A DNA stretch of 35,993 nt from Promethearchaeota archaeon (GCA_016926735.1 JAFGOA010000021.1:1-35993); one strand, 5' to 3'; shown: positions 748 to 20,229, numbered from the stretch's first letter. The notes: generated by a model from the letters alone, not told the origin. A program made the numbers and translations.

Positions 748-1362
748 TTAGAATTCTAAAAATCCAGGATCTTCAAAAACATCTTCAATATCTCGCTTTT
801 TGCGAATATCACTTTCATCATGTTCAGAGAATAAAGAATCCTCATCAGTTTTAATTCCTTCTTCTAGTTCTTCGGTCTCTAATTTCAATAAAACATCTTT
901 CTCAAGTCTTTTATATTTTTCTGCTTTAGCTTTCCAATCATTTACTTCATTGATATCGGCATTATCTTCTTCTTCTAATAGTTGAGCCGCTTTTATTCTG
1001 CATAAACTTGATAAAAGTGAGTAGGAAAGTGCGAGTTCTCCCCATTCATTATTTTCTTTTAATTTTGCAATACCTTTTTCTAGCCTTTGTAATTCTGTAT
1101 CTGCATAAAAAACATCAATAAAATCTCCAAAAGCATCAACAGGTTCTGATATAGAGTTGATCAATACTTCTTTTTCTAATCCACAATGACCACATTTGAC
1201 CTTAGCAAACCCCTCTTGTTTCTTTAAACTTTCCACTTTAACACTTTTTTCACCACAATCCTCATTTTATAGTAAGTCTATTAAATTTTGTGGGCAGGTG
1301 AAAATTTTTGGTAATTTTTTTACCCTTTTATATGTTTGCTGTTTTCTTTTTCTTCTTCCCAA
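748..1362 (-). CDS. elf1: Transcription elongation factor Elf1 with a C-terminal extension, interrupted by a 30-nt putative intron; join(complement(1288..1362),complement(748..1257)), 194 aa spliced
   Basis: TTG start at 1362 with AGGAGA just upstream. Reads MGRRKRKQQTYKRVKKLPKIFTCPQ|CGEKSVKV...AKVKCGHCGL...EPVDAFGDFID, matching the Elf1 pattern (MGRRK, FxCPxC, CxxC, EPVDxYxxxID). The ORF track shows only the downstream part (748..1236). Confidence 0.88.
1258..1287 (-). other. Putative 30-nt BHB-type intron in elf1
   Basis: Sense sequence AATTTAATAGACTTACTATAAAATGAGGAT contains an in-frame TAA. Removing it restores CPQCG. Central helix CCAC/GAGG (3 of 4 pairs), bulges AA|A and AT|T, intron stem ATTT(A)ATAG/CTAT(A)AAAT, exon stem including TTCACC/GGTGAA. 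Confidence 0.8.
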
Positions 1363-1575
1363 TTAAATCTCCTAAGTTTTTGAATTAACTAGATAAAAAA
1401 TATATATAAAGGTAGTAATTAAATCATGATATGATATAGAATCAAAACTAAAAAATTTTTGCTTTCTAAGATTTCGATAATTTTCCATAAAATTTTTTAG
1501 GGATAATGTATATACTTATTTACTCTTTTTAGCCAAATTAATTAAATCAATGATAAATAAGAGTGGATAATAGGT

Positions 1576-2670
1576 ATGGAACATAATAATCTATCATTAG
1601 AATATGATGAAAACTTGATAAATCGAATTCTTGATGATATTAATATGAGATATATCATTCTTTTTCAATATATCATACGAAATGACCTATTTAAGAATTT
1701 AAATGATTTAGAATTATTAGAATCTTATGAAAGAATTTTAAATCTCGATGAAATTTTTAAAAATAATATAACTAAATTTTGGAATGAAAATTTCATTGAA
1801 ATAGCAATAGATCTTGGATTATTTAAGAATATTCGAAATATCAATGATTTTAAACAAAAAGATCAAGATTATATTATAAAATTAGGAGAAGAAACAGTTA
1901 CTCTAGAAGACAATACAATTTTAGTACCCGAAGATACCCTTTTTCTTATGATAAATAAAAAATTTAAACATCTTACAAGGAGAAATTTTAATTTGGCTCT
2001 CACAAAATTAAAAAGTGTAAGATGTGAATCCACTGGAGTAATTCATTCATTTATTTATACAATTGGAGAAAATGACATTACTCTTGCTGATGATGTTTAT
2101 GAGATATTGGATCAATTTGGAAATGTTTATCAATCAATTAAAATTGAGATTACAATTGAGGGATTTTATAAAAATTTTAGAGATATATATGATAAAATAG
2201 TTGAATATATAGAAATTTATGACCCAATATTTAATAATAAAAATATAATAAAAAAAATTGAAAAGGCAATTGAAGAAAATAAGGATATCTTAAAATATTT
2301 AGTTGATCAAAAAATTGTTTTACCCGAGAAATTTGATTTTAGTAAAATTGATAATAATGAGAAAATATTTAAAGATTGGAATTTACAATTGATTGATCTT
2401 CTACATTTTAGATATAAAATGAATAAGATAGATGAAGAACTTGAAAAGATTAGATGTTATTATACAGGTAAAAATAGAAAAAATAGTTATCTTCAATTTA
2501 TAGAAAAAATATCATTTGACGAAGATAACATTAATGAAAAAATAAAAAATGAATTAATCACTTTAAAAAACAAGATAGTGGATATTAATAAAATCTTGAA
2601 ACTTCTAACTAAAAAACAAATAAAACTATTAAATTTAGATTATGAAAGATTTTTCATTACAAATAATTAA
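1576..2670 (+). CDS. Uncharacterised protein, first gene of the SMC-like operon; probable winged-helix followed by a helical bundle
   Basis: 364-aa ORF with GGT before ATG. WH-like segment (PEDTLFLMINKKFKHLTRRNFNLALTKL...ITLADDVYEILDQF) followed by a long amphipathic helical C-terminal half. Confidence 0.7.
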   Translation: MEHNNLSLEYDENLINRILDDINMRYIILFQYIIRNDLFKNLNDLELLESYERILNLDEIFKNNITKFWNENFIEIAIDLGLFKNIRNINDFKQKDQDYIIKLGEETVTLEDNTILVPEDTLFLMINKKFKHLTRRNFNLALTKLKSVRCESTGVIHSFIYTIGENDITLADDVYEILDQFGNVYQSIKIEITIEGFYKNFRDIYDKIVEYIEIYDPIFNNKNIIKKIEKAIEENKDILKYLVDQKIVLPEKFDFSKIDNNEKIFKDWNLQLIDLLHFRYKMNKIDEELEKIRCYYTGKNRKNSYLQFIEKISFDEDNINEKIKNELITLKNKIVDINKILKLLTKKQIKLLNLDYERFFITNN

Positions 2671-2688
2671 AATTAGTCAATACTAGCT

Positions 2689-3666
2689 ATGAAATGTCCA
2701 GCATGTAATATTGAAATGAAGACCTTGGTTGAAGGAATTTTTCAATGTCCTCAATGCAAAAAAATCACTAAAGAAAAAACTGAAAAAGAAGAGGAATTAG
2801 AAAAGAAATCAACACTTGAAGGGGAAATAATTAATGGAGATTGGTTTCATAAACATGTTTCGCTTAATTCAGCATATGAAGTATGTGAAAAAGGTATAAT
2901 TATCAACAAAACAGATACTAGAATGTTTGCTGTATTAATATGTCACAGCGCGTATTTAAAAGATGAAAGATATATAAGACTTTCTTGGTGGAAAAAATCT
3001 TTTTATCAACATGCTGGGATGATAAAAATATATGAACCTGATGTATTAATAAATTTAATTAAATCATTAGAGTCTCTCGATCGTGATTTTGATGAATTTT
3101 GGACATTTAAAGGTAAATTTAGAGAAAAAAAATCAAATAATGAAGAAGATTCAATAAAAGAAAAAAATCTAGAATTAATAAAATACAGAATAATTGAAAA
3201 TCGAACATGTCCTAATTGTCAAAAAAAAATGAAAAAAGAAAAATCTCACTATGAATGCCCCCATTGTGGGGAAATTGTTATCTTAGAGGGGTATAATCAA
3301 CCAATATTTAATATACCTCCTTCTGAACTTAAGTTAAATTTTCAAGGTAATTTTCCAATTAATTTTTATTTACCTGTAAGTGGGATAACGATAAAATGGC
3401 TTATGGGAGAATGGAAAGCTTTAGTTGTTATTTATTCTAAAGATAATCCTAATAAAAAATGGCTTAGATTTTATTGGTGGACAAGAGATTTAAAAAGTGT
3501 TCTTAAATACGGAATTACTGAAATTGGAGATGGATCAAAACTGGGTTGGAAAGCTCAAAAAGGGTCAGGAAACAGTAATATTTATAATAAAAAATTAATT
3601 AGGCCATTAATTGAATCTTTGAAAAAAATAGCTAAAGAATTAGATTGGAATATTCATCTTAATTAA
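2689..3666 (+). CDS. Internally duplicated protein: 2 x [C4 zinc ribbon + beta-beta-beta-alpha domain resembling the PC4/PUR fold]
   Basis: CPAC..CPQC and CPNC..CPHC zinc ribbons. Repeated IRLSWW/LRFYWW and IYEPDVLINLIKSL/IYNKKLIRPLIESL segments. Confidence 0.7.
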   Translation: MKCPACNIEMKTLVEGIFQCPQCKKITKEKTEKEEELEKKSTLEGEIINGDWFHKHVSLNSAYEVCEKGIIINKTDTRMFAVLICHSAYLKDERYIRLSWWKKSFYQHAGMIKIYEPDVLINLIKSLESLDRDFDEFWTFKGKFREKKSNNEEDSIKEKNLELIKYRIIENRTCPNCQKKMKKEKSHYECPHCGEIVILEGYNQPIFNIPPSELKLNFQGNFPINFYLPVSGITIKWLMGEWKALVVIYSKDNPNKKWLRFYWWTRDLKSVLKYGITEIGDGSKLGWKAQKGSGNSNIYNKKLIRPLIESLKKIAKELDWNIHLN

Positions 3667-3682
3667 AATTATATAATTTATC

Positions 3683-4825
3683 ATGTCTGAAAGTAAAGAT
3701 CAAACTTGGAAAAGCTTATTGGATGAATTTAAAAAAAGTGTAGAAAAAGTTATTGTTCAATTAGAAAAAAGAGATATCGAAAGAATACCTGGTTCTAGAG
3801 AGGCTCTTTTAAGACGACTAGAGGATATTAAAAATCAATTTCCCAAAAATCAAGGGGAAATATTCATTAAAGCAATTGATGACAAGATTCAAAATGCTTT
3901 CTTTCCTAGTACTCTAGACTTTAGTGAAGCTTTTAAGAAAATTTTAATATCACGCACTCATGAACAAGATTTTATTATAAATGAATTAATAAATGGATTT
4001 ATTTCATCAAAATCCAAAGCAATAGCTTCGGGAACACAAGTTCCTATTATTGATCGAATGGTAGAGGCTTTTAGTAGGAGAAATGATTTTCACATTGTTG
4101 ACCATCAATTTTATGCTATGTTTGGAGATCCAAATAATCCCAAACAATATATTAAAAAACAACTAGATGAGCTGGTAAAATTATTCGGTCTGGTTTCAAA
4201 AGAATTAATTATTGAAAAAGATAAAAGGAGAAGTGAAAAAAAAATCTATACTTTCTATACCTTTCCTGATGAGATCTTAAAAATACTTGAAGAAAAATAT
4301 TTAATTTTAGATGAAAAATTGGGATATACCTATGTTTCTGAAGAATTTGATCGAAATGTTTTTATTTGCATGTTTTTAGCAAATATTGCTATTAACCGTG
4401 AAAATCTTGATAAAATAGGCGGAGAATATACAATTAATGGAATATCTGCAATTTTCGCTTTAATTTTGTTACTAAGTTTTATGCCAAAATTATCTGTAAA
4501 TGAAGATAATCCAATACTTCGAGATCCAACATATAATGATAGTAATATGAGTGTTATTCCAAAATCATGGATGATGAAACAGGTACTGGATGACCTATTT
4601 GATCCATTGATTAAAATTATAGCATACAGGTTAGGTGGGGGATTATGGTATACAAAAATAATTGATTCAGATGTAAGAAAAAACCTAGTCAATCAAATTC
4701 GCTTTCTTATTAGAGATATTAACAAATGGATCCTCGGAGAGATGATAAGGATTGAAATACCGATATTTGTTGAAATCTCTAATATATTCACACAAATCTT
4801 TATTGATAGTAATAGAGATACCTAA
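3683..4825 (+). CDS. Uncharacterised protein with a probable central winged-helix
   Basis: 380-aa ORF in the operon. The segment YIKKQLDELVKLFGLVSKE...YTFYTFPDEILKIL resembles a WH recognition helix and wing. Confidence 0.65.
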   Translation: MSESKDQTWKSLLDEFKKSVEKVIVQLEKRDIERIPGSREALLRRLEDIKNQFPKNQGEIFIKAIDDKIQNAFFPSTLDFSEAFKKILISRTHEQDFIINELINGFISSKSKAIASGTQVPIIDRMVEAFSRRNDFHIVDHQFYAMFGDPNNPKQYIKKQLDELVKLFGLVSKELIIEKDKRRSEKKIYTFYTFPDEILKILEEKYLILDEKLGYTYVSEEFDRNVFICMFLANIAINRENLDKIGGEYTINGISAIFALILLLSFMPKLSVNEDNPILRDPTYNDSNMSVIPKSWMMKQVLDDLFDPLIKIIAYRLGGGLWYTKIIDSDVRKNLVNQIRFLIRDINKWILGEMIRIEIPIFVEISNIFTQIFIDSNRDT

Positions 4826-4848
4826 AAAACTAAGAAGAGGGAAATTAA

Positions 4849-6111
4849 ATGAGATTAGAAAAATGGACAGATATTCTACCAAGATATCAAACATTTCTTA
4901 GTCATATGAAACCTATCCTTAGAGAAACAAGAAGAATTATTGAGGATCTGGACCCTGATCTCTTATATGATCCTGAAGTGTTAGATAAAATAAGAGAAGA
5001 AGAAGAAAAAAGAAATGTAAGAAAAGTTCGAGCTTTATCTGAATTCTCTGCAATGTATAGATCAAATGTATATGAAATTATGAAGGATTTTATCACAAAA
5101 TACAAAGATAGAATTTCTTTAATTGATATAAAAGATTATATAATTGAATTTCTTCAAGAATCTGTAGATGCTTTAGCTATTTTAGGAAATATAACTAATC
5201 CTGATGAACGAAATTTAGAAAATACCTACTTATATAAATTAACTAAATTTATTGAAAATATTTTATTTCCAAGAGGTACATCTTTAAAAAAGATATATGA
5301 AAGATTGCTTGAATATGCACCTCAATTCTATGAATCACAAAGACATATACTTATGTCACACACTCATTATAGAGATGAATTAGAAAACAAGGATTTTTTC
5401 ATTATACCAGGGATGTCTCCCAAAGTATATCAAATTATAAATAATATTACATCGTTATTTAATTTGGATCCTAATTATGGGGATTTTCCCGAAAGAGAAA
5501 ATCATGAAATTCCTTTAATCTTAAAAAATGATGTTTTTTTGCCATATATTGATTCGATCGCTAGTGCCGAAGAAGATGCAATTGAAAAAATTGTTGAAAG
5601 AATAGGTCTAAGAGTAATAGATGGAATTTTCTTAGGTCCTAATGAAAAATTAGTAGATATTCTCTTGGACAATAATTATTTTAGAATAAATAAACAATCA
5701 GATGGGATAAGCAGACTTATTCCTCAATTTAGTAATGAAACACTTATTCTTTATTATTTAGCATTTGCTTCAAAGAGTAGAGGTTTTCTAACAAAAGAAA
5801 TAATTAATTGGATTGCAATGAATTTTGCTTTTTTGATATATATGGGTATTTTGAAATGGAAATTATCTGATGAGAATATTTTTTACGGTATATTTAAAGA
5901 TCTTCAGACAAATGAGAAGGTATTACCTTATTTAATGAAATTGATTTGTTTTCCAAATTATATAAGTTTAGATAAAATGCAAATAAGAGACTCTCCCCAA
6001 TATAGAAAAGAGATTTTTAATTTTATAGGATCACAGATTGATAATATTCAAAATTTAATTGATGAAGTTGGAAATCATTGTCAAAATATCGAAAATGAAA
6101 ATAATAATTAA
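4849..6111 (+). CDS. Uncharacterised, mostly helical protein in the SMC-like operon
   Basis: 420-aa ORF with a GAGGG RBS-like motif upstream and a 23-nt gap to the previous gene. Confidence 0.7.
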   Translation: MRLEKWTDILPRYQTFLSHMKPILRETRRIIEDLDPDLLYDPEVLDKIREEEEKRNVRKVRALSEFSAMYRSNVYEIMKDFITKYKDRISLIDIKDYIIEFLQESVDALAILGNITNPDERNLENTYLYKLTKFIENILFPRGTSLKKIYERLLEYAPQFYESQRHILMSHTHYRDELENKDFFIIPGMSPKVYQIINNITSLFNLDPNYGDFPERENHEIPLILKNDVFLPYIDSIASAEEDAIEKIVERIGLRVIDGIFLGPNEKLVDILLDNNYFRINKQSDGISRLIPQFSNETLILYYLAFASKSRGFLTKEIINWIAMNFAFLIYMGILKWKLSDENIFYGIFKDLQTNEKVLPYLMKLICFPNYISLDKMQIRDSPQYRKEIFNFIGSQIDNIQNLIDEVGNHCQNIENENNN

Positions 6112-6129
6112 CAATTATAGAAATAGGAT

Positions 6130-7215
6130 GTGAATAAAATTACGTTTAAAGATGAAGAAATAAAGGAAAGATTAGGTAAATATGGAGTGGTTTATTTACC
6201 ACAAGATATAAAAGAAGAAATTGATGATATTAAAGGAAATAACGAAATAAAAGAGCGATTAGAGGACTTTTTCAATGCTCTTATTAAATATGAAGAAATG
6301 GTAGAACAACTAAAAAAAACAAAATTATCACCTAATTTAACAGTATTATTATATGGTCCCCCTGGTACGGGAAAAACTTCCTTGACAAGAGCTTATTCTA
6401 AAAAATACAATATTCCTATGTGTATTGTTGAATCTGATCGATTGGTTTCACCACTTTTAGGGGATACTATTAAAAATTTAAGAAACGTTGTTGAATTATC
6501 AGCAGAAATAGCTAAAGAAAATGGTGTGTTTGTTTTGTTCTTTGATGAAATTGATGCTATTGGATCAGAAAGATCAAATATCCATGAGGTAGGTGAAATT
6601 AAAAGAGCTGTTATTTCGTTTCTCCAAGTGATTGATAGAGTTAATTATGAAGGATTACCTCTGGCTATTATAGGTGCTACAAATCATCAGCACCAACTTG
6701 ATTCTGCAATATGGCGTCGTTTTACTTTCCATTTAGAATTTAATTTTCCAGATTATGAAATGAGGAAAAGTATTATTGAGTCTTTTTTGATTAAAATTGA
6801 AAAGGCAAATATAGGAGTAGACAAAAAAATTCAAGAATCATTAGAAAACGAATATAAAAAAATTAAAGAAATACATCAAAGTCTAGAATCTAAATTTGGG
6901 CGTAGGATCAATGAATTTGAGGACAATATCTTATGGAATGAGGTTGAAAAAAAAATAAATTTGAAGGGATTAATACATCTAACAATAGGATATTCAGGCT
7001 CTGATATTGAAAGAGGTACAAGAGTTGCTATATTTAAAGTAATTCATACTGGTCTTTTAACATTTGATCTCTTTTATAACTCATTAAATCTTGTAGGAGG
7101 TACTGCCATTCATGTTGAAAGACAAGATGTTGTAAGTAATATCCAAACTACAGAAAAAAAACAAAATAAATATAGTGTAAATAAAAAAAAATCGTCTGGT
7201 CCTCCAGAAATTTAA
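6130..7215 (+). CDS. Single-module AAA+ ATPase, IetA-like
   Basis: Walker A GPPGTGKT, Walker B VLFFDEID, GEIKRAV, sensor-1 GATNH, arginine-finger region LDSAIWRRF, YSGSDI. GTG start. Confidence 0.9.
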   Translation: MNKITFKDEEIKERLGKYGVVYLPQDIKEEIDDIKGNNEIKERLEDFFNALIKYEEMVEQLKKTKLSPNLTVLLYGPPGTGKTSLTRAYSKKYNIPMCIVESDRLVSPLLGDTIKNLRNVVELSAEIAKENGVFVLFFDEIDAIGSERSNIHEVGEIKRAVISFLQVIDRVNYEGLPLAIIGATNHQHQLDSAIWRRFTFHLEFNFPDYEMRKSIIESFLIKIEKANIGVDKKIQESLENEYKKIKEIHQSLESKFGRRINEFEDNILWNEVEKKINLKGLIHLTIGYSGSDIERGTRVAIFKVIHTGLLTFDLFYNSLNLVGGTAIHVERQDVVSNIQTTEKKQNKYSVNKKKSSGPPEI

Positions 7216-7236
7216 AATTATATTTTTTCTTATAAT

Positions 7237-8274
7237 GTGATATATATGGAGGATAAAATTTTTGATCTTGATAATATAAAGCAATATTTTTATCCAATCG
7301 AAGAAATACAAAGTAAAATTAGTTATATTAATTCTATTCTTATTAAGAACAATAGTCTAAATCAATCCATTGAAAATTATGTTGAAAATGAAGAATTAAA
7401 AATAAATATTAAACAAAACGCTTCAAATATAAATGACCTAAGTTTAAAATTAATTAATATTATCAATAACAACTTAAAAAAATATATAATTTTTGAAGAT
7501 AATCTAATTAAGAAATATAAAGATGTTTACTTAAATAAAATAAAATTATTGAATGCAGATCAAAATTTTCTGAAAAAAATAGGGTTATTTCTTATAGACA
7601 CTAAACAAATCTCAAAAGTTATTCAAGAAACATCATATATTCCATCAATAACCTATAATAATTGGTCAGATTTATTAGATTCCCTCAAAAATAATTCATC
7701 GTTTATTGCTATAATCGATAAAATAGATAAATTTTACAATAAAATAATAAAAGAAAAATTAAAAGAAATTATTTCAAAAATTCCTAATGATATTAGTCCA
7801 ATAATTATCGCAGATTTTAAAAAAGAATTTCTGAAAAATCCTAATATTTCATTTAATGATTTCGTTAAAAATATCGAAAATAAACTAACAGAAAAAGAAT
7901 TTATAGAAAGAAAAGAAATAATAGAAGAATCAAGGGAAAAACAAAAAATCGAAGAATTAAAGAAAACTCAAGAAGAACAGAAAAAATCTTATGAAGATTA
8001 CTTTAAATATTCTGATAAAGAGTTTGAAAGAAGAAGAAGAAAAAAAAAAAGAGAAAAATTATCTGAAATCTCTGAGAAAGCAATTAAAAATGATACTATT
8101 AATGAAGAAATTACAGAAAAAATAAAACAATTTAAATCTAAATTTGGAAACTCATTTGAAGAAAAATATCTTATTCAAAAAGATGATAATAAAGATCCTC
8201 TTAATATAATCCGTGAAAGAAAGAAAAAAAAAGAAGAAGAATACAAAAAGTTCCTAAATAAATTGAAAGAATAA
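7237..8274 (+). CDS. Charged coiled-coil protein (start may be ATG at 7246)
   Basis: 345-aa ORF with a K/E/R-rich C-terminal half (EFERRRRKKKREK). Confidence 0.7.
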   Translation: MIYMEDKIFDLDNIKQYFYPIEEIQSKISYINSILIKNNSLNQSIENYVENEELKINIKQNASNINDLSLKLINIINNNLKKYIIFEDNLIKKYKDVYLNKIKLLNADQNFLKKIGLFLIDTKQISKVIQETSYIPSITYNNWSDLLDSLKNNSSFIAIIDKIDKFYNKIIKEKLKEIISKIPNDISPIIIADFKKEFLKNPNISFNDFVKNIENKLTEKEFIERKEIIEESREKQKIEELKKTQEEQKKSYEDYFKYSDKEFERRRRKKKREKLSEISEKAIKNDTINEEITEKIKQFKSKFGNSFEEKYLIQKDDNKDPLNIIRERKKKKEEEYKKFLNKLKE

Positions 8275-8293
8275 TAAAAAAGTGTGATTTAAT

Positions 8294-9868
8294 ATATCTA
8301 AAAATGAATTTAAAATATCAATAGGCAATAATAATATCGCTATAAAAGATAAATATACGATTATTTCTGGAAATATTGATAAAAATAATTTTAATTCTTC
8401 TAATGATAATAATCTTTTTCAAACTTATGATAAATTTGATAATCTTTCTTTAGATGGTTTTCTTTCAATTATTAGTCAATTTGAAAAAACATTTAAAAAA
8501 TTAGAGAAGTATAGTGAAATGCTATCTTTTTTAAAAATATTCAGAAAGGTTTCCAATAACAATATTTCAATTCTTGATGATATTATAAATTTAATAGAAT
8601 CCACATACACATATTCAAATACTATTCTCTTAAAAAATGAGATCAGATCACTCCAAGAGGAATTAGAATTATCAACTATTAGAGATAAATCAAGTTTATT
8701 ATCCGCAAAAACTGATTTTATTCATAAAATGGAATTAAATATTGAAAAAAACAGTGAAAAATTATCCTTTTTAGAAGAGGATTATCAAAAAATAAAAAAA
8801 AAGAAAGATAAAATTGAGAAAAAGATCCAGAAGTATAAAGAAGATGTTAAAGAGCTTTCACAAAAAAAAAAAGATAAATTTGATGTAATTAATAAAATTA
8901 CACGAAATATGGAAGATCCAGATAATAAAAGTAATGAAATATTAATTGAAGCAAATCTTTCAAATTCAGAAATGATTAAAAAACTTAGAATTGAAGCAAA
9001 AGAAATCCATAACCAAATTAATCAGACTAAATTAGATTTAAATGAATCAAATGAAGAATTAAAAAAAATAGCGCCAAAATATAATCTCTATAAAAAAGAT
9101 TATGATGATCTTAGTTCAATTATACAAAAAGAAAGCATAAAATTAAAGGAAACTAAAATTGAAATCGATAAAGAAACATCTGATAATATCAAAACAGATA
9201 CGGGAAAAATAAATCAGTTTGGAAAAATTAGATCTTCTGATACCATAAAAAGAGATTTAAATGAGAAACAAAGAGCTTTAAATCAGATAAATCTTTTTAA
9301 AAATTCTTTAAAAGTAAAGGCTAAAGAAGACTTTTCAGGATTAAGAAAAAAAATATCTGATATTACGACATTTATCAATAAAAATCAAGAAAAAATCATA
9401 TTTTTTCCGAATGAAGGTGATATAATTTCAAGTATTGAAAATTTCAGGGATTTGGAATTATTGACAATTAAAGTAGAGGATCAATTAAATCAATTTCTTC
9501 TGACAATTAATCTAAAAGCTGAATTAAAAATAAAATTAGAAACAAAAGAATTCTTTATCCAAATATCATTTATCCGAAATAATAAAGAAATTGTTAAATT
9601 TGAGAATTTGACAACACCAGAAAAAGTCTTTTTTGTTATAATGTTCTATATTTCTATGAAGATCATTCTTAAATTTAAGAATATTATTTTTTCAAATCTA
9701 TTTATTCATCAAAATTATAATAAAAGAGGATCTCTATTTAGGACAATAGAAAAAATAATCCCGATATTTAAAACTAACAAACAATTGGCAGATAAAAATC
9801 TTATTTTTATTATATCCAATTTTGAGATGAATAGATCAATTAGTAATGTAAAATTAATAAAAATTTAA
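8294..9868 (+). CDS. Degenerate SMC/Rad50-like coiled-coil protein with ATPase motifs eroded; probable non-canonical ATA start at 8294 (ORF track ATG at 8519)
   Basis: The frame is open from 8288. The extension encodes KDKYTIISGNIDK at the Walker A position. There is a long central coiled coil. The C-terminal FENLTTPEKVFFVIMFYISM...NIIFSNL occupies the LSGGEK...hhhhDE positions. Confidence 0.65.
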   Translation: MSKNEFKISIGNNNIAIKDKYTIISGNIDKNNFNSSNDNNLFQTYDKFDNLSLDGFLSIISQFEKTFKKLEKYSEMLSFLKIFRKVSNNNISILDDIINLIESTYTYSNTILLKNEIRSLQEELELSTIRDKSSLLSAKTDFIHKMELNIEKNSEKLSFLEEDYQKIKKKKDKIEKKIQKYKEDVKELSQKKKDKFDVINKITRNMEDPDNKSNEILIEANLSNSEMIKKLRIEAKEIHNQINQTKLDLNESNEELKKIAPKYNLYKKDYDDLSSIIQKESIKLKETKIEIDKETSDNIKTDTGKINQFGKIRSSDTIKRDLNEKQRALNQINLFKNSLKVKAKEDFSGLRKKISDITTFINKNQEKIIFFPNEGDIISSIENFRDLELLTIKVEDQLNQFLLTINLKAELKIKLETKEFFIQISFIRNNKEIVKFENLTTPEKVFFVIMFYISMKIILKFKNIIFSNLFIHQNYNKRGSLFRTIEKIIPIFKTNKQLADKNLIFIISNFEMNRSISNVKLIKI

Positions 9869-9887
9869 AAATTAGGTATTATATAAA

Positions 9888-10394: not shown

Positions 10395-10414
10395 GGAGAA
10401 TTAAAAAAGAAAAC

Positions 10415-10831: not shown

Positions 10832-10876
10832 GATATATCATTTTATTTTTTTTGTAAGTATATAAAGAGTTATCAG

Positions 10877-11548: not shown

Positions 11549-11659
11549 ATTCTATAATAAAATATTCTTAAAACTGTTTTTTAGAAATTTAGAAGGTTTG
11601 AATAAAGTGTATAATTATGTATCATTGAAAATAATTATTATTTTTATAGAAGGTAATAA

Positions 11660-12577: not shown

Positions 12578-12746
12578 TTTTTTTACCTTTAATCTTGCTT
12601 TTATAATCAATAAGAAATATATTATAAGTTTATAAATTGAAACTATAATTTAAAATAACTCCTTAGTAATTAAAGTTATGATTGAAAATTATATATAAAA
12701 AAAAGAACTATTTCATAAAAGAAAAAAAAATAATTTGTTGTTATTC

Positions 12747-13742
12747 TTAAATATAATAAGGATTAATATTGGGTGGTAGGTAAATACAAATATAATTTAT
12801 AGAAATTAAAATTATCATTGTTATAACTAAAGAAAAATATACTTTCTTATTCCATTTAAATATATTTTCTCCATCTAATATTCCTATAGGAATTAAATTA
12901 AATAATCCCAACATAAAGTTTAAAGAGGCTGCTTGAGCTATAAAAAAATTTATAGGATAAATTGGAACTAAAAAGGATAAAATCAATAATATCGATCCAT
13001 AGACTAAATTCACCAATGGACCCGCTGATTTGCATAACCCTGTTTTTCTATCAATTTTATCTAATCCTAAAACCACAACCGCACCTGGCAAGGCTAAAGA
13101 GGGTAATGCTTGAGATCCTGTTACCATAGAAGTAATTCCCATAATTAAACCAAATATGGTTATTATCATTCCAAATTTTAACAATCTAAACTTAGTTTGA
13201 AGACCAAAATGAACAGCAACTTGACGATGCCCTAATTCATGAAAAAAAAAAGCTGTTGTATAAAATCCTGCTAACATAAATACTATCCAACCGTAACCTA
13301 AAGAGATTAACTGAGTTTGCTGTTCTGGTTGATAAAAACTAATTAAACCTATAATGTAGATTAATACACAACCAATTAGAAGGTGAATAAATTCCGATTG
13401 ATAGGGAAATAATATTCCTTTAAATTCTATTCCGGAATTAGGATCAAATGCATTCTCAGGAATATTAGATTCTCTCCTATACCAAGTAAAACTTCCATCA
13501 CTTCTAGCTTCTGTTGTATTTGATGTTATATTTGAAGATCTTGAAGGTTGTTGTGAAAAATCATTAGGTGAAGTTATATTTGATATAGGATTAATTTGAG
13601 CATTATTCATTTCCAATGTTTCTTTTACAATATTACATTCATGGTCTATTGATTCTTTATGTAGATAACAATAAGATTGCCTGCAAGTACTGCAATAATA
13701 CAGATTTTCAGACTCATTACCGCAATGATAACAATATGGCAT
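12747..13742 (-). CDS. AN1-like zinc finger fused to an M50 (site-2 protease family) intramembrane metalloprotease
   Basis: CYHC...CSTCRQSYCYLH...HEC, HELGH, AGPLVN and FNLIPIGILDG. Confidence 0.85.
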   Translation of the reverse strand: MPYCYHCGNESENLYYCSTCRQSYCYLHKESIDHECNIVKETLEMNNAQINPISNITSPNDFSQQPSRSSNITSNTTEARSDGSFTWYRRESNIPENAFDPNSGIEFKGILFPYQSEFIHLLIGCVLIYIIGLISFYQPEQQTQLISLGYGWIVFMLAGFYTTAFFFHELGHRQVAVHFGLQTKFRLLKFGMIITIFGLIMGITSMVTGSQALPSLALPGAVVVLGLDKIDRKTGLCKSAGPLVNLVYGSILLILSFLVPIYPINFFIAQAASLNFMLGLFNLIPIGILDGENIFKWNKKVYFSLVITMIILISINYICIYLPPNINPYYI

Positions 13743-13917
13743 ATAATTAACAACTCTGACTTTTTTTGAAATTAAACATTATTAAATATAAAATTTTATC
13801 TATTAATAGATAAAAGTCATAAAAAACTAATATATAATATATTTATTGATTTAGAAAATGTTTAATTTTAAAAAAAGATATAATTGTCTAAGAAATATAT
13901 AAGTTTAGAACTCCGTT

Positions 13918-15540
13918 ATGACAAGTACACCCACATCTGTTAGAGATGGTCCATACTCTACAAACACCCTTGTATCGAAAAAATTCTTAATTATTTATAT
14001 TATAAATATTTGGATAAGTTTTTATCTCCTTCTAATAGAGTTTATATTATTTTGGAAATTGAGTGAAGTAAATATGATTGTATTCTTTTTATTTTTTCCA
14101 ATAGAAATTCTATTTGGATACTATACTATTATTTTTTCTTCTTTCTTAATCTCGAAATTATTAATGATATTAATTAATTTACTTCATAAACCAAAAGAAG
14201 GGATTTTTAGAAGAGAAAAATCTGATAAAGATTATTATTATTGGAGTTTGCGTGCAGTTATAAAAAAATGGCCTATCTGGATTTTAACCTTTATTCCATC
14301 ATCCTTATTAAACAATCTTTTTTTAACGTTATTTGGTGTAAAAACTTCTTTATCTAATAGTCTTAATCATGTTAATATTGATACTGAATTTATCGAATTA
14401 GGAAGCAAAATCCATATCGGTAAAGGTGCTTTTATAAAATCAAGTTTGATTTTTAAAGATTATCTAATCATAAAAAAGATAATTATTGAAGATAATGTTA
14501 ATATTGCCCCTCATTCATATATATCCCCAGGAACAATAATAAAGAATAATACTGTTATAAATACTCTTTCTGTAACAAAATTAGATCAATTATTAGAACC
14601 TAATTCTATATATTCTGGATATCCCGCAGAAAAGATTGGAAGTAAGGAAAAAAGCACTCTCAGTCAAATAAATATTGATATAATCCTTAAAGAAAAAAAT
14701 ATTAAGACAAATAATAGAATAGAATTGGAAAGAAAAGGGAAGATTCCTGAAAATAAGTTTATCAAAAAAATCCCAACTTATATTGGTATTTTTGCACTTG
14801 TATATTTTTGCTCTTATGCTTTTGTATTTTATGGACTTTATCTTTATTTTACAAAAATTTTCTTTCCATTTGTTTTGAATTCTCCATCATATTCTACTTT
14901 AATATTTACCAATATTTCTATAATTATACTTGTATTTACACCTATAATTATTCTTGGATTTCATATTTTAAATATTCTCTTTATGGTTTTAATTACAAAA
15001 GCTCTTTATAATATCATGAGTAAAATGATTAAACCAAAAGAAGGAGTTTTTCATTGGTCAAAAAAAACGATAGATTATGATTTTTATTTTCTTAGATCCT
15101 TTTTACTTCGATATGCTAAATGGAAGATTCAGAGAAGTCCGTATCCTTGGCTTATTAAATCTGTTTTTAATTTCATTGGAAGTTGTTCAATTGGAAAAGG
15201 GACTGTTATAGAAGATCCATATTTATCAAAAGAATTCATAAATATCGGTGAAAATACATATATTGGCAAAATACTCCTTACTAATCAACTATGGGATACA
15301 GCCTTAACTATAAAAGGAGTAAAAGTTGGAGAAAATGTTGTTATTAATGATGGATGTTGTATTGCTCCAGGTAATAATATTGAAAAAAACGTTACTATTC
15401 TCCCTCTTTCAATAACTTCAAAATACGATTGTTTAGAATATGGTGGAATTTACTATAATGCACCTATTAAATTAATAAAAAATCAAGAAGATTTAATTAA
15501 AATTTTAAATATAAAGATAGACAATAACAATAAATTATAA
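13918..15540 (+). CDS. Membrane protein with two [TM hairpin + left-handed beta-helix hexapeptide] units, acyltransferase-like
   Basis: Duplicated KPKEG(I/V)F...DY.(Y/F)..LR...KW...P unit followed by EFI.(L/I)G..IG hexapeptide repeats and a terminal G/N-x-P-x-K segment. Confidence 0.75.
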   Translation: MTSTPTSVRDGPYSTNTLVSKKFLIIYIINIWISFYLLLIEFILFWKLSEVNMIVFFLFFPIEILFGYYTIIFSSFLISKLLMILINLLHKPKEGIFRREKSDKDYYYWSLRAVIKKWPIWILTFIPSSLLNNLFLTLFGVKTSLSNSLNHVNIDTEFIELGSKIHIGKGAFIKSSLIFKDYLIIKKIIIEDNVNIAPHSYISPGTIIKNNTVINTLSVTKLDQLLEPNSIYSGYPAEKIGSKEKSTLSQINIDIILKEKNIKTNNRIELERKGKIPENKFIKKIPTYIGIFALVYFCSYAFVFYGLYLYFTKIFFPFVLNSPSYSTLIFTNISIIILVFTPIIILGFHILNILFMVLITKALYNIMSKMIKPKEGVFHWSKKTIDYDFYFLRSFLLRYAKWKIQRSPYPWLIKSVFNFIGSCSIGKGTVIEDPYLSKEFINIGENTYIGKILLTNQLWDTALTIKGVKVGENVVINDGCCIAPGNNIEKNVTILPLSITSKYDCLEYGGIYYNAPIKLIKNQEDLIKILNIKIDNNNKL

Positions 15541-15543
15541 AAA

Positions 15544-16299
15544 TTGATAAAAATGGATAATTCTGAGATAATAATAACTGGAAATAATCTTAGAGAAAAT
15601 AGATTCTTTATTTTAAAATTTTTGATAATGTGGCCAGCAATATTATTCACAATCTGTACAATATTACCATTTATAGAAATAACTATTCATTATTTTAATT
15701 TATTAACTATAATCCTTGTTCTTCCATTTGTAATGATAGTATATTTTATGGCGTTCATTATATCAATGGTTTTTTTTTCTAAATTATATTTAATTCTATT
15801 TAATCTAATACAAAAGCCAAAGGAAGGATTTTTTAAAATATCTGTCTATAATAAAGATTATTATTTTTATTATCTCAGAAAAGTATTAAAAGAATTTGTT
15901 ATAAAGATTTTTGATTATTTTCCTCTTCCTTGGTCAAAATTATTACCTTTAAAATTATTCAATATAAAAATTCCTAGCAGTGCAGGAGTACTGGATAGTT
16001 ATATTGATTCTGAATTTATTGAATTTGGTGAAGAAGCTATATTAGGAGAAGGATCGATTGTCATGAGTTCTATAATAATTGGTGATAAATTATTAGTAAA
16101 AAAAACAATTATCGAAGATCGAGTAACAATTGGAGCATACAGTGTTGTAGCACCAGGAACGATAGCTGAAGAAGGGTCTATTTTGGGTATGGGTAGTTAT
16201 ACAAATATAAACCAGCGTCTTGAAAAAAATTGGATATATGTAGGACGACCTGCTAAAAAATTAAAACAAATCATTGATGATTTTAGTAGAAAAGAATAA
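15544..16299 (+). CDS. Membrane protein with one [TM hairpin + left-handed beta-helix] unit, paralogue of the upstream gene
   Basis: KPKEGFF...DYYFYYLR, DSEFIEFG, VTIGAYSVVAPGT and YVGRPAKK. Confidence 0.8.
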   Translation: MIKMDNSEIIITGNNLRENRFFILKFLIMWPAILFTICTILPFIEITIHYFNLLTIILVLPFVMIVYFMAFIISMVFFSKLYLILFNLIQKPKEGFFKISVYNKDYYFYYLRKVLKEFVIKIFDYFPLPWSKLLPLKLFNIKIPSSAGVLDSYIDSEFIEFGEEAILGEGSIVMSSIIIGDKLLVKKTIIEDRVTIGAYSVVAPGTIAEEGSILGMGSYTNINQRLEKNWIYVGRPAKKLKQIIDDFSRKE

Positions 16300-16396
16300 G
16301 TATTATATTATTAAGAACAAAATATTTGTTTAATAAATTATAAAGTTTTTTTAGCCATAAAGATCTAATCTAATTATTATTAAAGTTGATGTATGA

Positions 16397-16621
16397 GTGG
16401 ATAAAAAAGTGTTTTGTAATACATGTGAACGCTATGTAGAATTAAAAAGGAAACAAATTGATCAAAAATATCACGAATTATGGTTTTTCTTTGTTTTTTT
16501 AACTTTTGGATTTGGTTATCTTATTTTTCTAATAGTTAAATATAGAAAAAGAAAGAACTCTTGTCCCTATTGTGAGGATATATTTGATTTAAATAATATC
16601 CAAGAAGGACCAATTGGTTGA
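16397..16621 (+). CDS. Small membrane-associated zinc protein with LITAF-like topology
   Basis: CNTC, then a hydrophobic stretch (LWFFFVFLTFGFGYLIFLIV), then CPYC. Confidence 0.65.
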   Translation: MDKKVFCNTCERYVELKRKQIDQKYHELWFFFVFLTFGFGYLIFLIVKYRKRKNSCPYCEDIFDLNNIQEGPIG

Positions 16622-16623
16622 AT

Positions 16624-16872
16624 TTATAATTCCTTAATTTTCATTTGACTTTTACATCTTGAACATATGATATCTTTTTCTGAAAGAGTAGATTTTAAAA
16701 TAGTCTTTTGATAGTTACAGTTTGATTTTGGACATTTCAATAGGTATTTTTTTAGATTTCCTTTTTTTTTTAAATCCTCAGATTCAAATAGATCTTTCTT
16801 ATTATCTACTTTTTTTGTTATTTCCTTTTTTTTTTGTTTTGAATTAACCCATTTATCTAAACTCAATAACAA
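16624..16872 (-). CDS. Small lysine-rich zinc-ribbon protein
   Basis: CPKSNC...CSRC. AGGAGA lies immediately before the TTG start. Confidence 0.6.
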   Translation of the reverse strand: MLLSLDKWVNSKQKKKEITKKVDNKKDLFESEDLKKKGNLKKYLLKCPKSNCNYQKTILKSTLSEKDIICSRCKSQMKIKEL

Positions 16873-17038
16873 ATCTCCTTTATTGTCAGAATTTTAAAAA
16901 TTGTTCTCATTTTTTATTATAATATAGTAAAAAATAATTATTCCTATAATCCTTAGTATTTTCTATTTTTTATAATATTTATTTTGATTATTATATTAGC
17001 ATAAAAAAAGATAAAAAAAAAAACCGAAAAGATCTAAT

Positions 17039-18274
17039 TTAAAAAACCTGTTCTTTTCCTGCAATTAAACGTTCTCTTAAATTAATAATATTTTCCTTGC
17101 TTAATTTTTCCTCAGCTACTTCGGTAGCTATTTTCTGTATACTTGAGAAATTAACGTTATCAGAAGGTATTAGACTGATAGAAGTAACCCAAGGGTCGGT
17201 AATTGGACGACCAATTTGAGATAATAATTTGACATGGGCTTCTAAAATATCTCCATTTCCTCTTGTGTAAATTTCCCGAGCAATATTAGTACTTAAAATG
17301 TTGTAGATTTTTCCAACATGATTAATTGGATTTTTTCCACATACTGCTTCTAAACTCATAGTACGACAGGGAGTAATTAAACCATTACTACGATTTCCTC
17401 TTCCAACTTGACCATCATCTCCAGCTTCAGCACTAGTACCTGTAATAGTAAGAAAAACAATATCTTTTTCAATTACATCTCCAACATTAATAGCACAAGA
17501 ACAATTTTTCTCTGGAATGATCTTGGTAGCTAGATCTAATACAGCATCCTTCATTTGTTCAATATAGTTAACATATTCACTTCTATCTTTAATATATTTA
17601 CTAACCATTGCACCACATATTGTGATATCAACATCTTTATCGACTCTTTGTACCATTACCTTGATATCTTCTCCTGATGCAGGACATTTACTTTTAAACT
17701 GATCTGAATTAAGCATTCTTTCTGTTTCTAATGCTATTTTTTCAACATCAGAATAAGGTGCAAAACCAACACCGAAACTTGTATCATTAGCAAGGGGTAC
17801 ACTTTCGATTGCGTCTGATTCTTCAAAAACACCTGTTAAATCAATTGAACCAGGTCTAACAGCATAATCAAATTGAATATGTTGATCTGATGAGATATCA
17901 ATATTTCTAAAAGTATCTCCAACAACTTGTCGGCAAGCATCCAAACAAAGAGTGGCTACTGGGACATATTCCAATTTATTATCTTTGAAAATTTGGTTAA
18001 TTGCCCGTCCTACTATTAAGAAATATTCGGGTTCTATTATTAATCCTCCACCATATTTTGGTTTAGAAATTCCCCCGACTAATGCTGCTTTATCAACATT
18101 ATGGTGATAATATCTACCAAAATTTTCAAAATAATACTTACAGAGAGCTCTAGAACAAGCATCTGCAGTCGCATCACATACAGAATCTGGATGCCCAACA
18201 CCTTTTCGTTCGACAATTTCTGGAAAATTACTCTTTTCAATTGGATCAAACTTGGCGTGATCGATTTTTAACAT
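17039..18274 (-). CDS. mat: S-adenosylmethionine synthetase, archaeal type
   Basis: EIVERKGVGHPD, ANDTSFGVG, GEDIKVM, SAEAGDDGQVGRGNR and GKNPINHVGKIYN. Confidence 0.96.
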   Translation of the reverse strand: MLKIDHAKFDPIEKSNFPEIVERKGVGHPDSVCDATADACSRALCKYYFENFGRYYHHNVDKAALVGGISKPKYGGGLIIEPEYFLIVGRAINQIFKDNKLEYVPVATLCLDACRQVVGDTFRNIDISSDQHIQFDYAVRPGSIDLTGVFEESDAIESVPLANDTSFGVGFAPYSDVEKIALETERMLNSDQFKSKCPASGEDIKVMVQRVDKDVDITICGAMVSKYIKDRSEYVNYIEQMKDAVLDLATKIIPEKNCSCAINVGDVIEKDIVFLTITGTSAEAGDDGQVGRGNRSNGLITPCRTMSLEAVCGKNPINHVGKIYNILSTNIAREIYTRGNGDILEAHVKLLSQIGRPITDPWVTSISLIPSDNVNFSSIQKIATEVAEEKLSKENIINLRERLIAGKEQVF

Positions 18275-18466
18275 TTAATCATCATCTATTTATTTAAATA
18301 ACAACTTAAATTATAAAATTAAATTATTCATCAAAAAAAAATTATACTACAAATATTAGAAAAGTCGATTAATATTGAAATCATTTCTTATAAAAATTAA
18401 GTATAAGTTTTGATCAATTTTATTGAATAAATTTTTTAAAATCATACAATATAATTCTAATAGGAA

Positions 18467-19486
18467 ATGAAATTATTAATTCAGAGAATAAATCAATTAC
18501 TTAAGGAAGCCAAATTTGAGACATTTGTTTTTGACTTTCCCTCACATATAAATAAGTTTTGTTATGATTTAATTGTAAAAAGAAACGATTTAGTCTTTAT
18601 TATTAAAACATTCCAAAATATAGATAATATTAATGAAGATATTATTAAAGGAATAAAATTATTATCCAAATTACTTAATTCTAAACCCTTATTAATCGGA
18701 GTTAAAAATCGTTATAAAAAATTAGAAGATAATACTATCTATCTTAGATATGATGTGCCCTTTATCACAGTAACTACTTTAGAAGGAATTCTAAAAAATG
18801 AGTTATATCCCTTTATTTTCGCTCGCAGAGGAGGTGGAATTGTTTTTATTGATGGGAAGTTGCTTAAAACCATAAGAGAAGAGCAAAACAAGACTAGAAA
18901 AGAATTATCTGAAGAAATAGGAATTACTAAAAGAACCCTTTGTTCATATGAAAATGAAAATATGAGACCATCAAAACAAATAGCTGAAAAAATAAGTGAG
19001 ATATTAAAGTCAAAATCTATATTTAGGGAAATTAATGTGTTTAATTGGGATATTAAAATTGATTTTAAGATTAAAGAAATAAAAAAAAATGAGGAGCTTA
19101 ACCAATTTGAAGAGCATATTCAAAATATAATTAAAGACATTGGAATTAAAACAAATTGGTATAAAACTGGCCTTTTTCCTTTTGATATGTTAATTTCTCC
19201 CCAAAAATGGGACAATCTTTCAGAAAATCAAATTTATCCTTTATGTTCTGATATAGCAAATGTAAAACAAGAAATTGATAAAAATTCTTTAATTAATTTA
19301 CTTACATTTACTAAATTATTTCAGAAAGATGCACTTTTTATTGTAGATAATGATTTTAAATTTCCTAATTTTACTTCAAAGGTTCAAATACCAATAATTA
19401 AAATCCGAACCCTTGAAAAAATAGATAATGAGGACGAATTTATTGATTATATACAGAATTTAAAAATAAAACCAAATAAAGAATGA
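18467..19486 (+). CDS. Archaeal Cro/C1-type HTH transcriptional regulator (COG1395-like)
   Basis: RRGGGIVFIDGKLLKTIRE...TRKELSEEIGITKRTLCSYENENMRPS. N-terminal nuclease-like fold (CYDLIVKR..FIIK). Confidence 0.8.
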   Translation: MKLLIQRINQLLKEAKFETFVFDFPSHINKFCYDLIVKRNDLVFIIKTFQNIDNINEDIIKGIKLLSKLLNSKPLLIGVKNRYKKLEDNTIYLRYDVPFITVTTLEGILKNELYPFIFARRGGGIVFIDGKLLKTIREEQNKTRKELSEEIGITKRTLCSYENENMRPSKQIAEKISEILKSKSIFREINVFNWDIKIDFKIKEIKKNEELNQFEEHIQNIIKDIGIKTNWYKTGLFPFDMLISPQKWDNLSENQIYPLCSDIANVKQEIDKNSLINLLTFTKLFQKDALFIVDNDFKFPNFTSKVQIPIIKIRTLEKIDNEDEFIDYIQNLKIKPNKE

Positions 19487-19509
19487 TAATGATCTGAAAT
19501 TGAAATTTT

Positions 19510-20229
19510 ATGTCTGAAAATTTAATATGTGGAATTGATGAGGCCGGGAGATCCAATTACATCTCGTAATAAAACCCCAAAGGCCCTGTCTTTGGTCCAA
19601 TGGTATTATGTGGTGTATGCTATAATGCATCTGAATTACAATATTTAAATGATATTGGTGTAAGAGATTCTAAACAACTTACTCCTAATAAAAGAACAAA
19701 ATTAGCTACCTTAATAAAAAAAAAATGCATTGGTTTTAAGGAGGTTCATGTATCCTCTGAAGAGATAGATAATCGAGAAGTAAGTAATATTTCATTAAAT
19801 CAACTTGAAGTTAATAAAATAGTTGAAATAATTGATACTTTGGAGCCAGATATTATATATATCGATGCTGCAGATGTAAATGAGGAAAGATTTGGTCAAA
19901 ATATTGAAAAACTTTTATCTTACAAACCAAAAGAGATAATATCTAAGCATAAAGCAGATGAAATTTACCCCATTGTATCTGCAGCTTCAATAATTGCAAA
20001 AACTAGTAGAGATACCGTAATAAATAGTATTAGAACTATTAATATAAATGATGGGCATGGAGATATCGGATCTGGATATCCTTCTGATAGAAAAACAACA
20101 GAATTTTTACGAAATTGGATAAAAAAATATAAAAAAGTTCCAGATTTTGCAAGAAAATCTTGGAAAACAACACAAAGAATCATAGATGAAGAATTAAATA
20201 ATAAAAAGATAACTGAATTTTTTAGCTAA
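19510..20229 (+). CDS. rnhB: Ribonuclease HII interrupted by a 30-nt putative intron; join(19510..19550,19581..20229), 229 aa spliced
   Basis: ATG at 19510 gives MSENLICGIDEAGR|GPVFGPMVLCG. Downstream motifs GVRDSKQL, IYIDAAD, HKAD, VSAASIIAK and GSGYPSD. The ORF track start (19600) lacks the catalytic DE motif. Confidence 0.93.
19551..19580 (+). other. Putative 30-nt BHB-like intron in rnhB
   Basis: ATCCAATTACATCTCGTAATAAAACCCCAA contains in-frame TAA TAA. Removing it restores DEAGRGP. Central helix (C)GGG/CCC(C), bulges AG|A and AA|A, exon helix GGCC/GGCC, internal hairpin ATTAC-ATCTC-GTAAT. Confidence 0.8.

Follow-up and report, generated by a model that had tools for sequence, protein, structure and literature searches.

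The closest described system is the intron in the cbf5 pre-mRNA of Crenarchaeota (Watanabe et al. 2002; Yoshinari et al. 2006; Yokobori et al. 2009). It is a short bulge-helix-bulge (BHB) intron situated in the coding sequence, within a conserved motif, and presumed to be cleaved by a hetero-oligomeric form of the tRNA splicing endonuclease EndA; according to the accessible part of the publication, it was gained and lost among related lineages (PMC2738675). A second mRNA substrate of EndA, confirmed both in vivo and in vitro, is the BHB intron in the 5' untranslated region (5'UTR) of HVO_1309 in Haloferax volcanii (PMC7714728). In the available portion of its text, the 2020 paper describing this case names cbf5 as the sole other BHB intron reported in an archaeal mRNA (PMC7714728). 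For Asgard archaea, multi-intron tRNA genes with introns at non-canonical positions and repeated intron gain have been described, and an EndA catalytic homologue is listed for 58 of 60 Asgard genomes, with two paralogues in 44, in the part of the preprint at hand (bioRxiv 10.64898/2026.10.13.758758). The substrates in that study are tRNAs; the term 'mRNA' is absent from it, and 'protein-coding' occurs once, in an unrelated sense. Here, two inserts are described in a stretch of 35,993 nt from a Promethearchaeota archaeon (GCA_016926735.1, JAFGOA010000021.1:1-35993; the whole stretch analyzed is referred to as the window). One lies in elf1 and the other in rnhB. Judged from the DNA, and at a probability of about 0.9, both are archaeal BHB introns, a type usually excised from tRNAs, in protein-coding mRNAs, which would be cut by EndA and joined by an RtcB-type ligase. 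As was already the case for cbf5, both are short and interrupt a conserved motif, and they are gained and lost among related lineages.

Inserts were evaluated with the textbook BHB rule, in which exon and intron form a helix of 4 bp, either strand bulges by 3 nt, and cleavage follows the second base of the bulge, according to the accessible sections of PMC5829648 and bioRxiv 10.64898/2026.10.13.758758. The elf1 gene is located on the minus strand. Open reading frame (ORF) lists and translation placed exon 1 at 1288-1362, with a TTG start and 25 codons up to the first half of the CPxC zinc knuckle. Exon 2 (748-1257) comprises the remaining zinc ribbon and an acidic C-terminal tail, and ends with the stop codon at 748-750. 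The intervening 30 nt (1258-1287) contain an in-frame TAA and split the first CPxC zinc knuckle of Elf1, the second half of which resumes in the same frame. With an X placed at the stop codon, the Pfam match to Zn_ribbon_Elf1 (PF05129, 7.7e-14) was unbroken over residues 2-85. The insert is composed of an A, a 9-5-9 hairpin, the strand GAGG (1260-1263) and AU. Three of four pairs are formed between GAGG and the exon bases CCAC (1290-1293), and the bulges are AA|A and AU|U. The result is a canonical hBHBh' motif (H 3/4, h 4, h' 4) with an outer exon-exon helix and an inner hairpin of 4+4 bp. The two cuts predicted by the rule are exactly 30 nt apart, which is the length that restores the frame. 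The start codon itself (1360-1362, minus strand) is TTG in the genus, GTG or TTG in several others, and ATG in most relatives.

The rnhB gene is located on the plus strand. Exon 1 (19510-19550) consists of an ATG start, 13 codons in all, and AG, the first two bases of the Arg codon in the RNase HII motif DEAGRGP; exon 2 (19581-20229) supplies the third base of this codon and continues with GPVFGP up to the stop codon. The insert within the Arg codon (19551-19580) is 30 nt long and contains two TAA codons. The match to RNase_HII (PF01351, 5e-46; X at the stops) was unbroken across it, covering profile positions 1-199 of 199. It is composed of an A, a hairpin of 5 bp with a 5-nt loop, the strand CCCC (19575-19578) and AA. 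In the central helix, CCCC is paired with the exon strand CGGG (19545-19548) at three of four positions. The helix favoured by RNAfold for this genome would yield an intron of 29 instead of 30 nt. The splice register was fixed with the aid of G001, a genome of the same genus, because its Arg codon can be assembled as AG + A alone. The register is therefore AG|N...AA|A, and in it the central helix of G001 is perfect (CGGG with CCCG). G005 carries UGGG with CCCA at this place and an intron of 31 nt.

Both inserts had been pointed out in a first-pass annotation made from the window alone, and ORFs, translation and Pfam confirmed that two 30-nt, stop-containing inserts had been placed correctly in the most conserved motifs of elf1 and rnhB. 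The gap-free alignment of the two given there was correct letter for letter, with the 5-nt loop at positions 11-15. The same holds for pairs 10:16 (G-C and C-G, respectively) and 7:19 (A-U and U-A), for U8:A18, A9:U17 and AAA at 21-23 in both, and for the pairing of positions 25-28 with exon bases -6 to -3 (3/4 in either intron). The differences which had been read as compensatory changes are real. The elf1 and rnhB introns are not homologous, however, so this is not evolutionary covariation, which was instead obtained from orthologous introns of relatives. The classification as BHB-type was upheld: elf1 is canonical, and rnhB follows the same register with a perfect central helix of 4 bp in relatives.

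For the comparison of orthologous introns, 60 relatives were searched with rnhB exon 2, and all 30 loci returned were inspected. An insert at the identical site was present in 18 loci (this genome, G000, and 17 others, from at least eight genera of the family) and absent from 12. G021 and one further metagenome-assembled genome (MAG) also bear it. In an alignment of 19 sequences the intron measured 30 nt in 16 cases and 28, 29 and 31 nt in one case each, and excision restored the frame in every one of the 19 despite these differences. In-frame read-through is therefore excluded, and the frame-restoring variation in length is hard to reconcile with gene decay. Four of four central-helix pairs were formed in 10 of the 19 sequences and three of four in the remaining 9. 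With the BHB structure imposed on the alignment, standard pairs were found in 87.7% of 301 cells. Shuffled alignments gave 67.7 ± 1.9% (0 of 500 reached 87.7%), a statistic inflated by the kinship of the sequences; a slid-register control, in which partners were moved by 1-3 columns, is free of that problem and gave 28-46%. Changes on both sides were observed for 11 of 16 pairs, i.e. for 9 of 9 in the hairpin and 2 of 4 in the central helix. The h' hairpin was paired in 85% of cells. The 3-bp h helix was paired in 93%, but consists of conserved codons and is therefore of little information. The wobble (third-codon) base of Ala (U, A, C or G) covaries with the base opposite it in the intron (A, U or G), and that of Gly (G, U or C) with its own partner (C or G). 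The outer helix was supported by covariation solely in a register that leaves four bases unpaired on the 3' side.

Outside the Asgard archaea, a Thermoplasmata MAG (L253), which belongs to a distant lineage of euryarchaea, carries a 43-nt insert at the identical rnhB site (Arg codon of DEAGRGP, about 400 nt into the locus), and 12 other non-Asgard loci with a readable site carry none. The Thermoplasmata insert suggests that the rnhB site is a recurrent target of insertion. In the three single-contig genomes matching at both sites, the rnhB site was apparently empty by open-frame length, and the elf1 site was apparently unoccupied as well, with G044 alone inspected.

The elf1 insert was found in 4 of 4 genomes of the genus, at 30 nt in each. 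It was found in 0 of 26 loci of other genera, the coding sequence of which is uninterrupted at the junction point. Within the genus the 3' strand GAGG shows no variation, and the hairpin varies with compensatory changes, being a perfect 9 bp in G001. Intron identity between G000 and G001 was down to 43-57%. Ratios of nonsynonymous to synonymous substitution rates (dN/dS) of the joined coding sequences within the genus were 0.07, 0.04 and 0.04 for elf1 and 0.20, 0.19 and 0.27 for rnhB. One match apiece was obtained in the genome for rnhB, elf1 and rpoB, and no intact paralogue of rnhB or elf1 was found in it. Both the range of dN/dS (0.04-0.27) and the lack of an intact paralogue speak against these copies being pseudogenes. 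The essentiality of elf1 and rnhB was assumed; the single-copy gene rpoB, described below, is the stronger case.

Further introns were sought in a homology survey that was blind to structure. Contigs of ten relatives (2.32 Mb) were used, and reciprocal tblastn comparisons of all ORFs with this genome were made. The signals sought were in-frame gaps with a stop, matches split between reading frames, and N- or C-termini lacking from a match but encoded just past a gap. Coverage amounted to 372 and 194 of the 2,791 ORFs of at least 150 amino acids, two sets that may overlap. The survey recovered elf1 and rnhB and found eight further sites in G000, at all of which the intron begins with A, has A-A/U before the 3' cut, and forms a 4/4 central helix when its length is the one that restores the frame. 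Two more introns were contributed by a strict motif scan. The total is 12 introns in 11 genes, each of 30-32 nt and with elf1 and rnhB included; the central helix is 4/4 in every one of the ten added.

These ten are located in PFK (C119 16691-16722, 32 nt; exon 2 from profile position 11), NadE (C143 3050-3079, 30 nt; a single stretch over profile 2-242), a MoxR AAA protein (C235 10264-10293, 30 nt), a DeoC/LacD-type aldolase on the minus strand (C50; intron 1 at 42770-42799, 30 nt, and intron 2 at 42170-42201, 32 nt), thioredoxin (C17 29832-29863, 32 nt; exon 2 from profile position 36, directly after WCGPC), a GTPase of the EF-2 family (C188 20431-20461, 31 nt; exon 2 from GTP_EFTU position 17), RpoB (C69 28503-28534, 32 nt; exon 1 covering Rpb2_1 positions 1-28 and exon 2 positions 41-203), a ThiF/E1-like protein (C108 9843-9872, 30 nt; a single Pfam stretch across the gap) and, as a probable case with the junction outside Pfam coverage, mevalonate kinase (C95 7648-7678, 31 nt). 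Gene identities were confirmed with Pfam, the profile coordinates running on across the gaps, and the predicted junctions regenerate known motifs, e.g. GGGD|CPG, WCGPC|K and HIDHG|K. At 12 of 12 sites in G000 the BHB cut rule removes exactly the length that restores both the frame and the conserved motif. With its two BHB introns, the aldolase gene (C50:42042-42883, minus strand) would comprise three exons; no archaeal protein-coding gene with two BHB introns was reported in the literature searched. The intron-bearing GTPase is one of two full-length EF-2-family paralogues.

The single-copy rpoB gene was interrupted in all three congeners that yielded it, and uninterrupted in all of about 50 other genomes as judged from open-frame length, with six loci inspected. 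The intron of the EF-2 paralogue is restricted to the genus, measures 31 or 32 nt, and shows a compensatory exon-intron change. The elf1, rpoB and EF-2-paralogue introns are all common to the genus and exhibit compensatory changes, for example exon CAC to CAT together with intron CUGU to CCAU. From these sequences, it appears that the Loki-type Asgard archaeon very probably must splice many mRNAs, including that of RNA polymerase subunit B. The first-pass annotation had predicted many spliced mRNAs, and ten further introns of the same build in the genome, with others in relatives, bear this out.

The same data bear on the possibility that the genes are simply broken, either as pseudogenes produced by a small insertion element or through assembly or sequencing artefacts. 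The frames are indeed interrupted by stops, gene callers would give truncated genes, and the MAG is fragmented into 238 contigs. However, the same inserts recur in other species and genera whose genomes were assembled independently, the dN/dS values given above show purifying selection on the exons, and the single-copy rpoB carries its intron in all three congeners with the gene. Insert lengths moreover vary by species with the frame always restored on removal, and neither terminal direct repeats nor a transposon-like sequence family was found among the 12 introns. Broken genes are considered hardly credible.

Another possibility is that the inserts stay in the mRNA and are passed over by the ribosome through translational bypassing ('hopping'). 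Bypass elements, such as that in gene 60 of phage T4 or the byps of yeast mitochondria, are also short and hairpin-bearing, have an early stop, and are not bound to lengths in multiples of three. The inserts described here resemble them in being short, with a stop soon after the break, a hairpin inside, and lengths not necessarily multiples of three. Against this, take-off and landing codons mismatch, being CAA and GAU in elf1, and AGA (AGU in G001) and AAA in rnhB. Furthermore, a covarying helix ties exon bases to the 3' portion of the insert, precisely in the register at which EndA would cleave, which bypassing does not require, and the BHB cut rule is obeyed at all 12 sites. Bypassing was accordingly given a very slight chance, and the inserts are treated in the following as BHB introns.

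All 12 introns have a common build of an A, a hairpin of 22-25 nt (loop usually 5-6 nt), a 4-nt exon-binding strand and A-A/U. They are without shared sequence, and their likeness is one of architecture. The 'shared micro-intron' of the first-pass annotation therefore stands for the architecture, which is common to all, but not for the sequence; a shared ancestry of the 12 is conjectural. The 24 exon bases flanking the introns have a mean G+C content of 49%, compared with 27% in coding windows, and 2.5% of random windows reach 49%. Insertion points are signature motifs rich in Gly, Pro and Cys (P-loop, WCGPC, GGGD, KYGDG, CPxC). In a genome of 26% G+C, such motifs alone may be able to supply a stable exon half of the BHB motif. 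Ten of the 12 introns are situated within the first 60 codons or so, and this 5' placement would limit the cost of translating unspliced message. A naive extrapolation from the yield of the homology survey (seven genes besides the two index genes) gives a few tens of introns, which disagrees with an estimate of about 15-20 based on the strict scan. The genome contains at least 12 introns and probably 15-40.

Motif scans of the whole genome were of limited use. A loose BHB rule gave 28,333 hits, which is too noisy at 26% G+C, and a second broad scan gave 81,456 hits versus 81,746 in a shifted-register control, i.e. no enrichment. For the strict scan, H of 4/4 with at least two G-C pairs or of 3/3, A as first base, A-A/U at the end, and a hairpin were demanded. 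At lengths of 24-48 nt it yielded 114 hits versus 92-122 in four controls. At 26-36 nt the numbers were 52 versus 23-41, with coding-like flanks in 9 versus 3-6. Seven of the 12 accepted introns were retrieved, and the strict scan was useful only in combination with homology or Pfam.

Several candidates were set aside. C201 5900-5931 was rejected since the beta-CASP protein is complete by Pfam. C29 13811-13843, where the domain fails to span the gap, was not accepted and is uncertain. Split or gapped matches without a BHB motif were obtained at C144+32133, C231+23684, C50+73676 and C82+7650. In an Obg/OLA-like GTPase (G010:C27, around 384418, minus strand) the P-loop contains a 45-nt, stop-containing insert with no convincing BHB at the lengths tried; this could represent an intron that is longer or relaxed, or else a broken gene. 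Inserts of 36 nt in G035:C2 and G025:C9 likewise gave no convincing BHB at the lengths tried. A low-score rescue of short N- or C-terminal exons returned mostly low-complexity noise. ARAGORN called introns of 8-736 nt in 19 of 52 tRNA genes, in a mode that is unreliable and blind to non-canonical positions.

Introns were also found in relatives, in a PP-loop enzyme of G036 and, in G025, in a GyrB-like gene and two others. The rtcB gene itself is split in G018 (C13:33313-34649) and G015 (C222:4087-5423), with profile coordinates 1-47 and 47-426. The gap in G018 corresponds to a BHB intron of 29 nt whose helix is 4/4, and the ligase mRNA would therefore need the ligase. The second EF-2 paralogue gave stop-containing matches in G028:C1, G007:C129, G035:C76, G025:C10, G015:C30, G059:C23 and G060:C6, each with one in-frame TAA or TAG, and several were 9-33 nt longer than elsewhere. 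More introns in this paralogue are likely on these grounds, also in the two genomes that belong to another family of the class.

Two EndA paralogues were detected in the assembly (PF01974, above cut-off, 100.8 and 66.3 bits) at C33:8963-9190 and C100:19024-19269. Asgard EndA is described in the accessible part of PMC5829648 as (alpha-beta)2 with an L1 insert giving broad specificity. The presence of two paralogues, taken with this published assignment and the preprint census of Asgard EndA (bioRxiv 10.64898/2026.10.13.758758), suggests that the enzyme here is of the same broad-specificity type. The position, structure, covariation and conservation of the introns, the selection on the exons, and the presence of EndA genes are shown here, whereas the cutting and joining of the RNA, the enzymes responsible and any regulatory role are inferred. 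In the transcript, the central helix would arise from the pairing of four exon bases just ahead of the 5' splice site with four intron bases close to the 3' end. This helix would be flanked by the 22-25-nt hairpin of the intron and by the exon-exon helix, leaving one bulge per strand. EndA would cut each strand after the second bulge base, and an RtcB-type ligase would join the exons, by which the frame and the motifs (CPxC of Elf1, DEAGRGP of RNase HII) would be restored exactly.

Several results weigh against this mechanism. Folding energies of the 70-nt contexts are ordinary (z -1.4 and -0.7, from single-sequence folds). Structure alone cannot pick out these introns in an A+T-rich genome, and the scans barely exceed their controls. 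What is significant is that the position is conserved, that lengths are not confined to multiples of three, and that relatives show compensatory changes. In rnhB of this genome, the central helix contains a C-C mismatch. If the outer helix supported by covariation forms, the 3' bulge has four unpaired bases, and the rnhB motif is therefore slightly relaxed. RtcB (PF01139) gave 0 matches in the assembly, which is 99.3% complete in 238 contigs. No RNA run covering this stretch was found, and three metatranscriptomes of the same study gave only spurious pieces of 20-30 nt from foreign contigs. Of 41 genomes searched, 37 gave an RtcB match, all three congeners among them. The gene is located about 11 kb beyond elf1 in relatives, and the equivalent place here would be past the contig end; an assembly gap would probably account for the missing gene.

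The missing canonical RtcB and the relaxed rnhB motif would also suit an excision of the RNA by other means than EndA and RtcB, such as another nuclease-ligase pair or RNA catalysis, with the BHB-like fold only partly relevant. Group I and group II self-splicing introns were rejected on length, without an Rfam search, the inserts having 28-32 nt and the cores hundreds; 30 nt is far below the size of either ribozyme. In addition, the EndA rule is followed at 12 of 12 sites, an EndA gene is present, and RtcB is present in all three congeners with the same introns. Such other routes were judged improbable, though less so than bypassing, and cleavage by EndA with joining by an RtcB-type ligase is retained.

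The mechanism is known already; new are the scale, the lineage and the genes affected. The literature searched contains one archaeal mRNA case in a coding sequence (cbf5) and one in a 5'UTR, compared with at least 12 introns in this one genome and different sets in relatives. BHB introns in Asgard protein-coding genes were not found described in the full-text literature searched, a coverage outside which subscription journals and supplements fall. As a direct consequence of the ORF lists, and as the first-pass annotation had foreseen, annotation pipelines would call these genes truncated. The genes for rnhB, elf1, rpoB, the EF-2 paralogue, PFK, NadE and others would be reported as truncated, split or missing. 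Such misannotation would distort completeness scores, metabolic reconstructions and the marker-gene alignments of Asgard phylogeny. The tRNA splicing enzymes would become general factors of gene expression, and the timing of splicing would matter where transcription and translation may be coupled. Intron presence varies between and within genera and would offer a tractable system for studying how prokaryotes gain and lose introns. The prediction of splicing could be tested directly in cultured Loki-type strains and with sediment metatranscriptomes.

A wider proposal was also considered. Loki-type Asgard archaea might carry tens of tRNA-type micro-introns in protein genes, RNA polymerase included, which are dynamic and possibly mobile. 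They might have been acquired repeatedly at codons rich in G+C within conserved motifs, e.g. through reverse splicing and subsequent reverse transcription or recombination, and gene expression in general would then depend on EndA and RtcB. This is tentative, and on present evidence we regard it as doubtful. If it were true, the rtcB introns of some relatives would close a feedback loop, and a second, protein-only route to split genes would exist in the closest prokaryotic relatives of eukaryotes. A role in post-transcriptional control is speculative, and so is any relevance to how spliceosomal introns arose.

With respect to known systems, the bypass elements (T4 gene 60, mitochondrial byps) share with the introns described here short, stop-containing and hairpin-bearing gaps that need not be multiples of three. 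They act on the ribosome, however, and need matching take-off and landing codons, a defining feature that is absent here. In the splicing of HAC1/XBP1 mRNA by IRE1 and RtcB, an endonuclease cleaves the RNA at two small structured sites; the exons are then joined by a tRNA ligase, which in animals is RtcB, and the frame changes. This unconventional mRNA splicing of eukaryotes is named in the accessible part of PMC13149111. It works alike only in being a protein-only splicing of mRNA; the nuclease family and the recognition motif differ. HAC1/XBP1 is moreover a single regulated substrate; any regulation of the introns described here would be speculative. The Asgard multi-intron tRNA genes belong to the same lineage and are served by the same enzyme, as far as the accessible text of the preprint goes (bioRxiv 10.64898/2026.10.13.758758). 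The HVO_1309 intron shares its nature as an mRNA substrate of EndA. It is located in an untranslated leader, so that the frame is independent of splicing, and the enzyme is of the alpha'2 type according to the portion of the paper available (PMC7714728). The cbf5 intron is closest. In the cbf5 gene of this genome, no intron was seen as far as it was looked for. The crenarchaeal case, as described in the accessible part of the publication, concerns one gene per genome in thermophilic Crenarchaeota, compared with a minimum of 12 introns, spread over 11 genes, in a single Asgard genome (PMC2738675). Unlike in the cbf5 case, the introns described here are stereotyped at 30-32 nt and mostly placed 5' in their genes, and one gene contains two of them.

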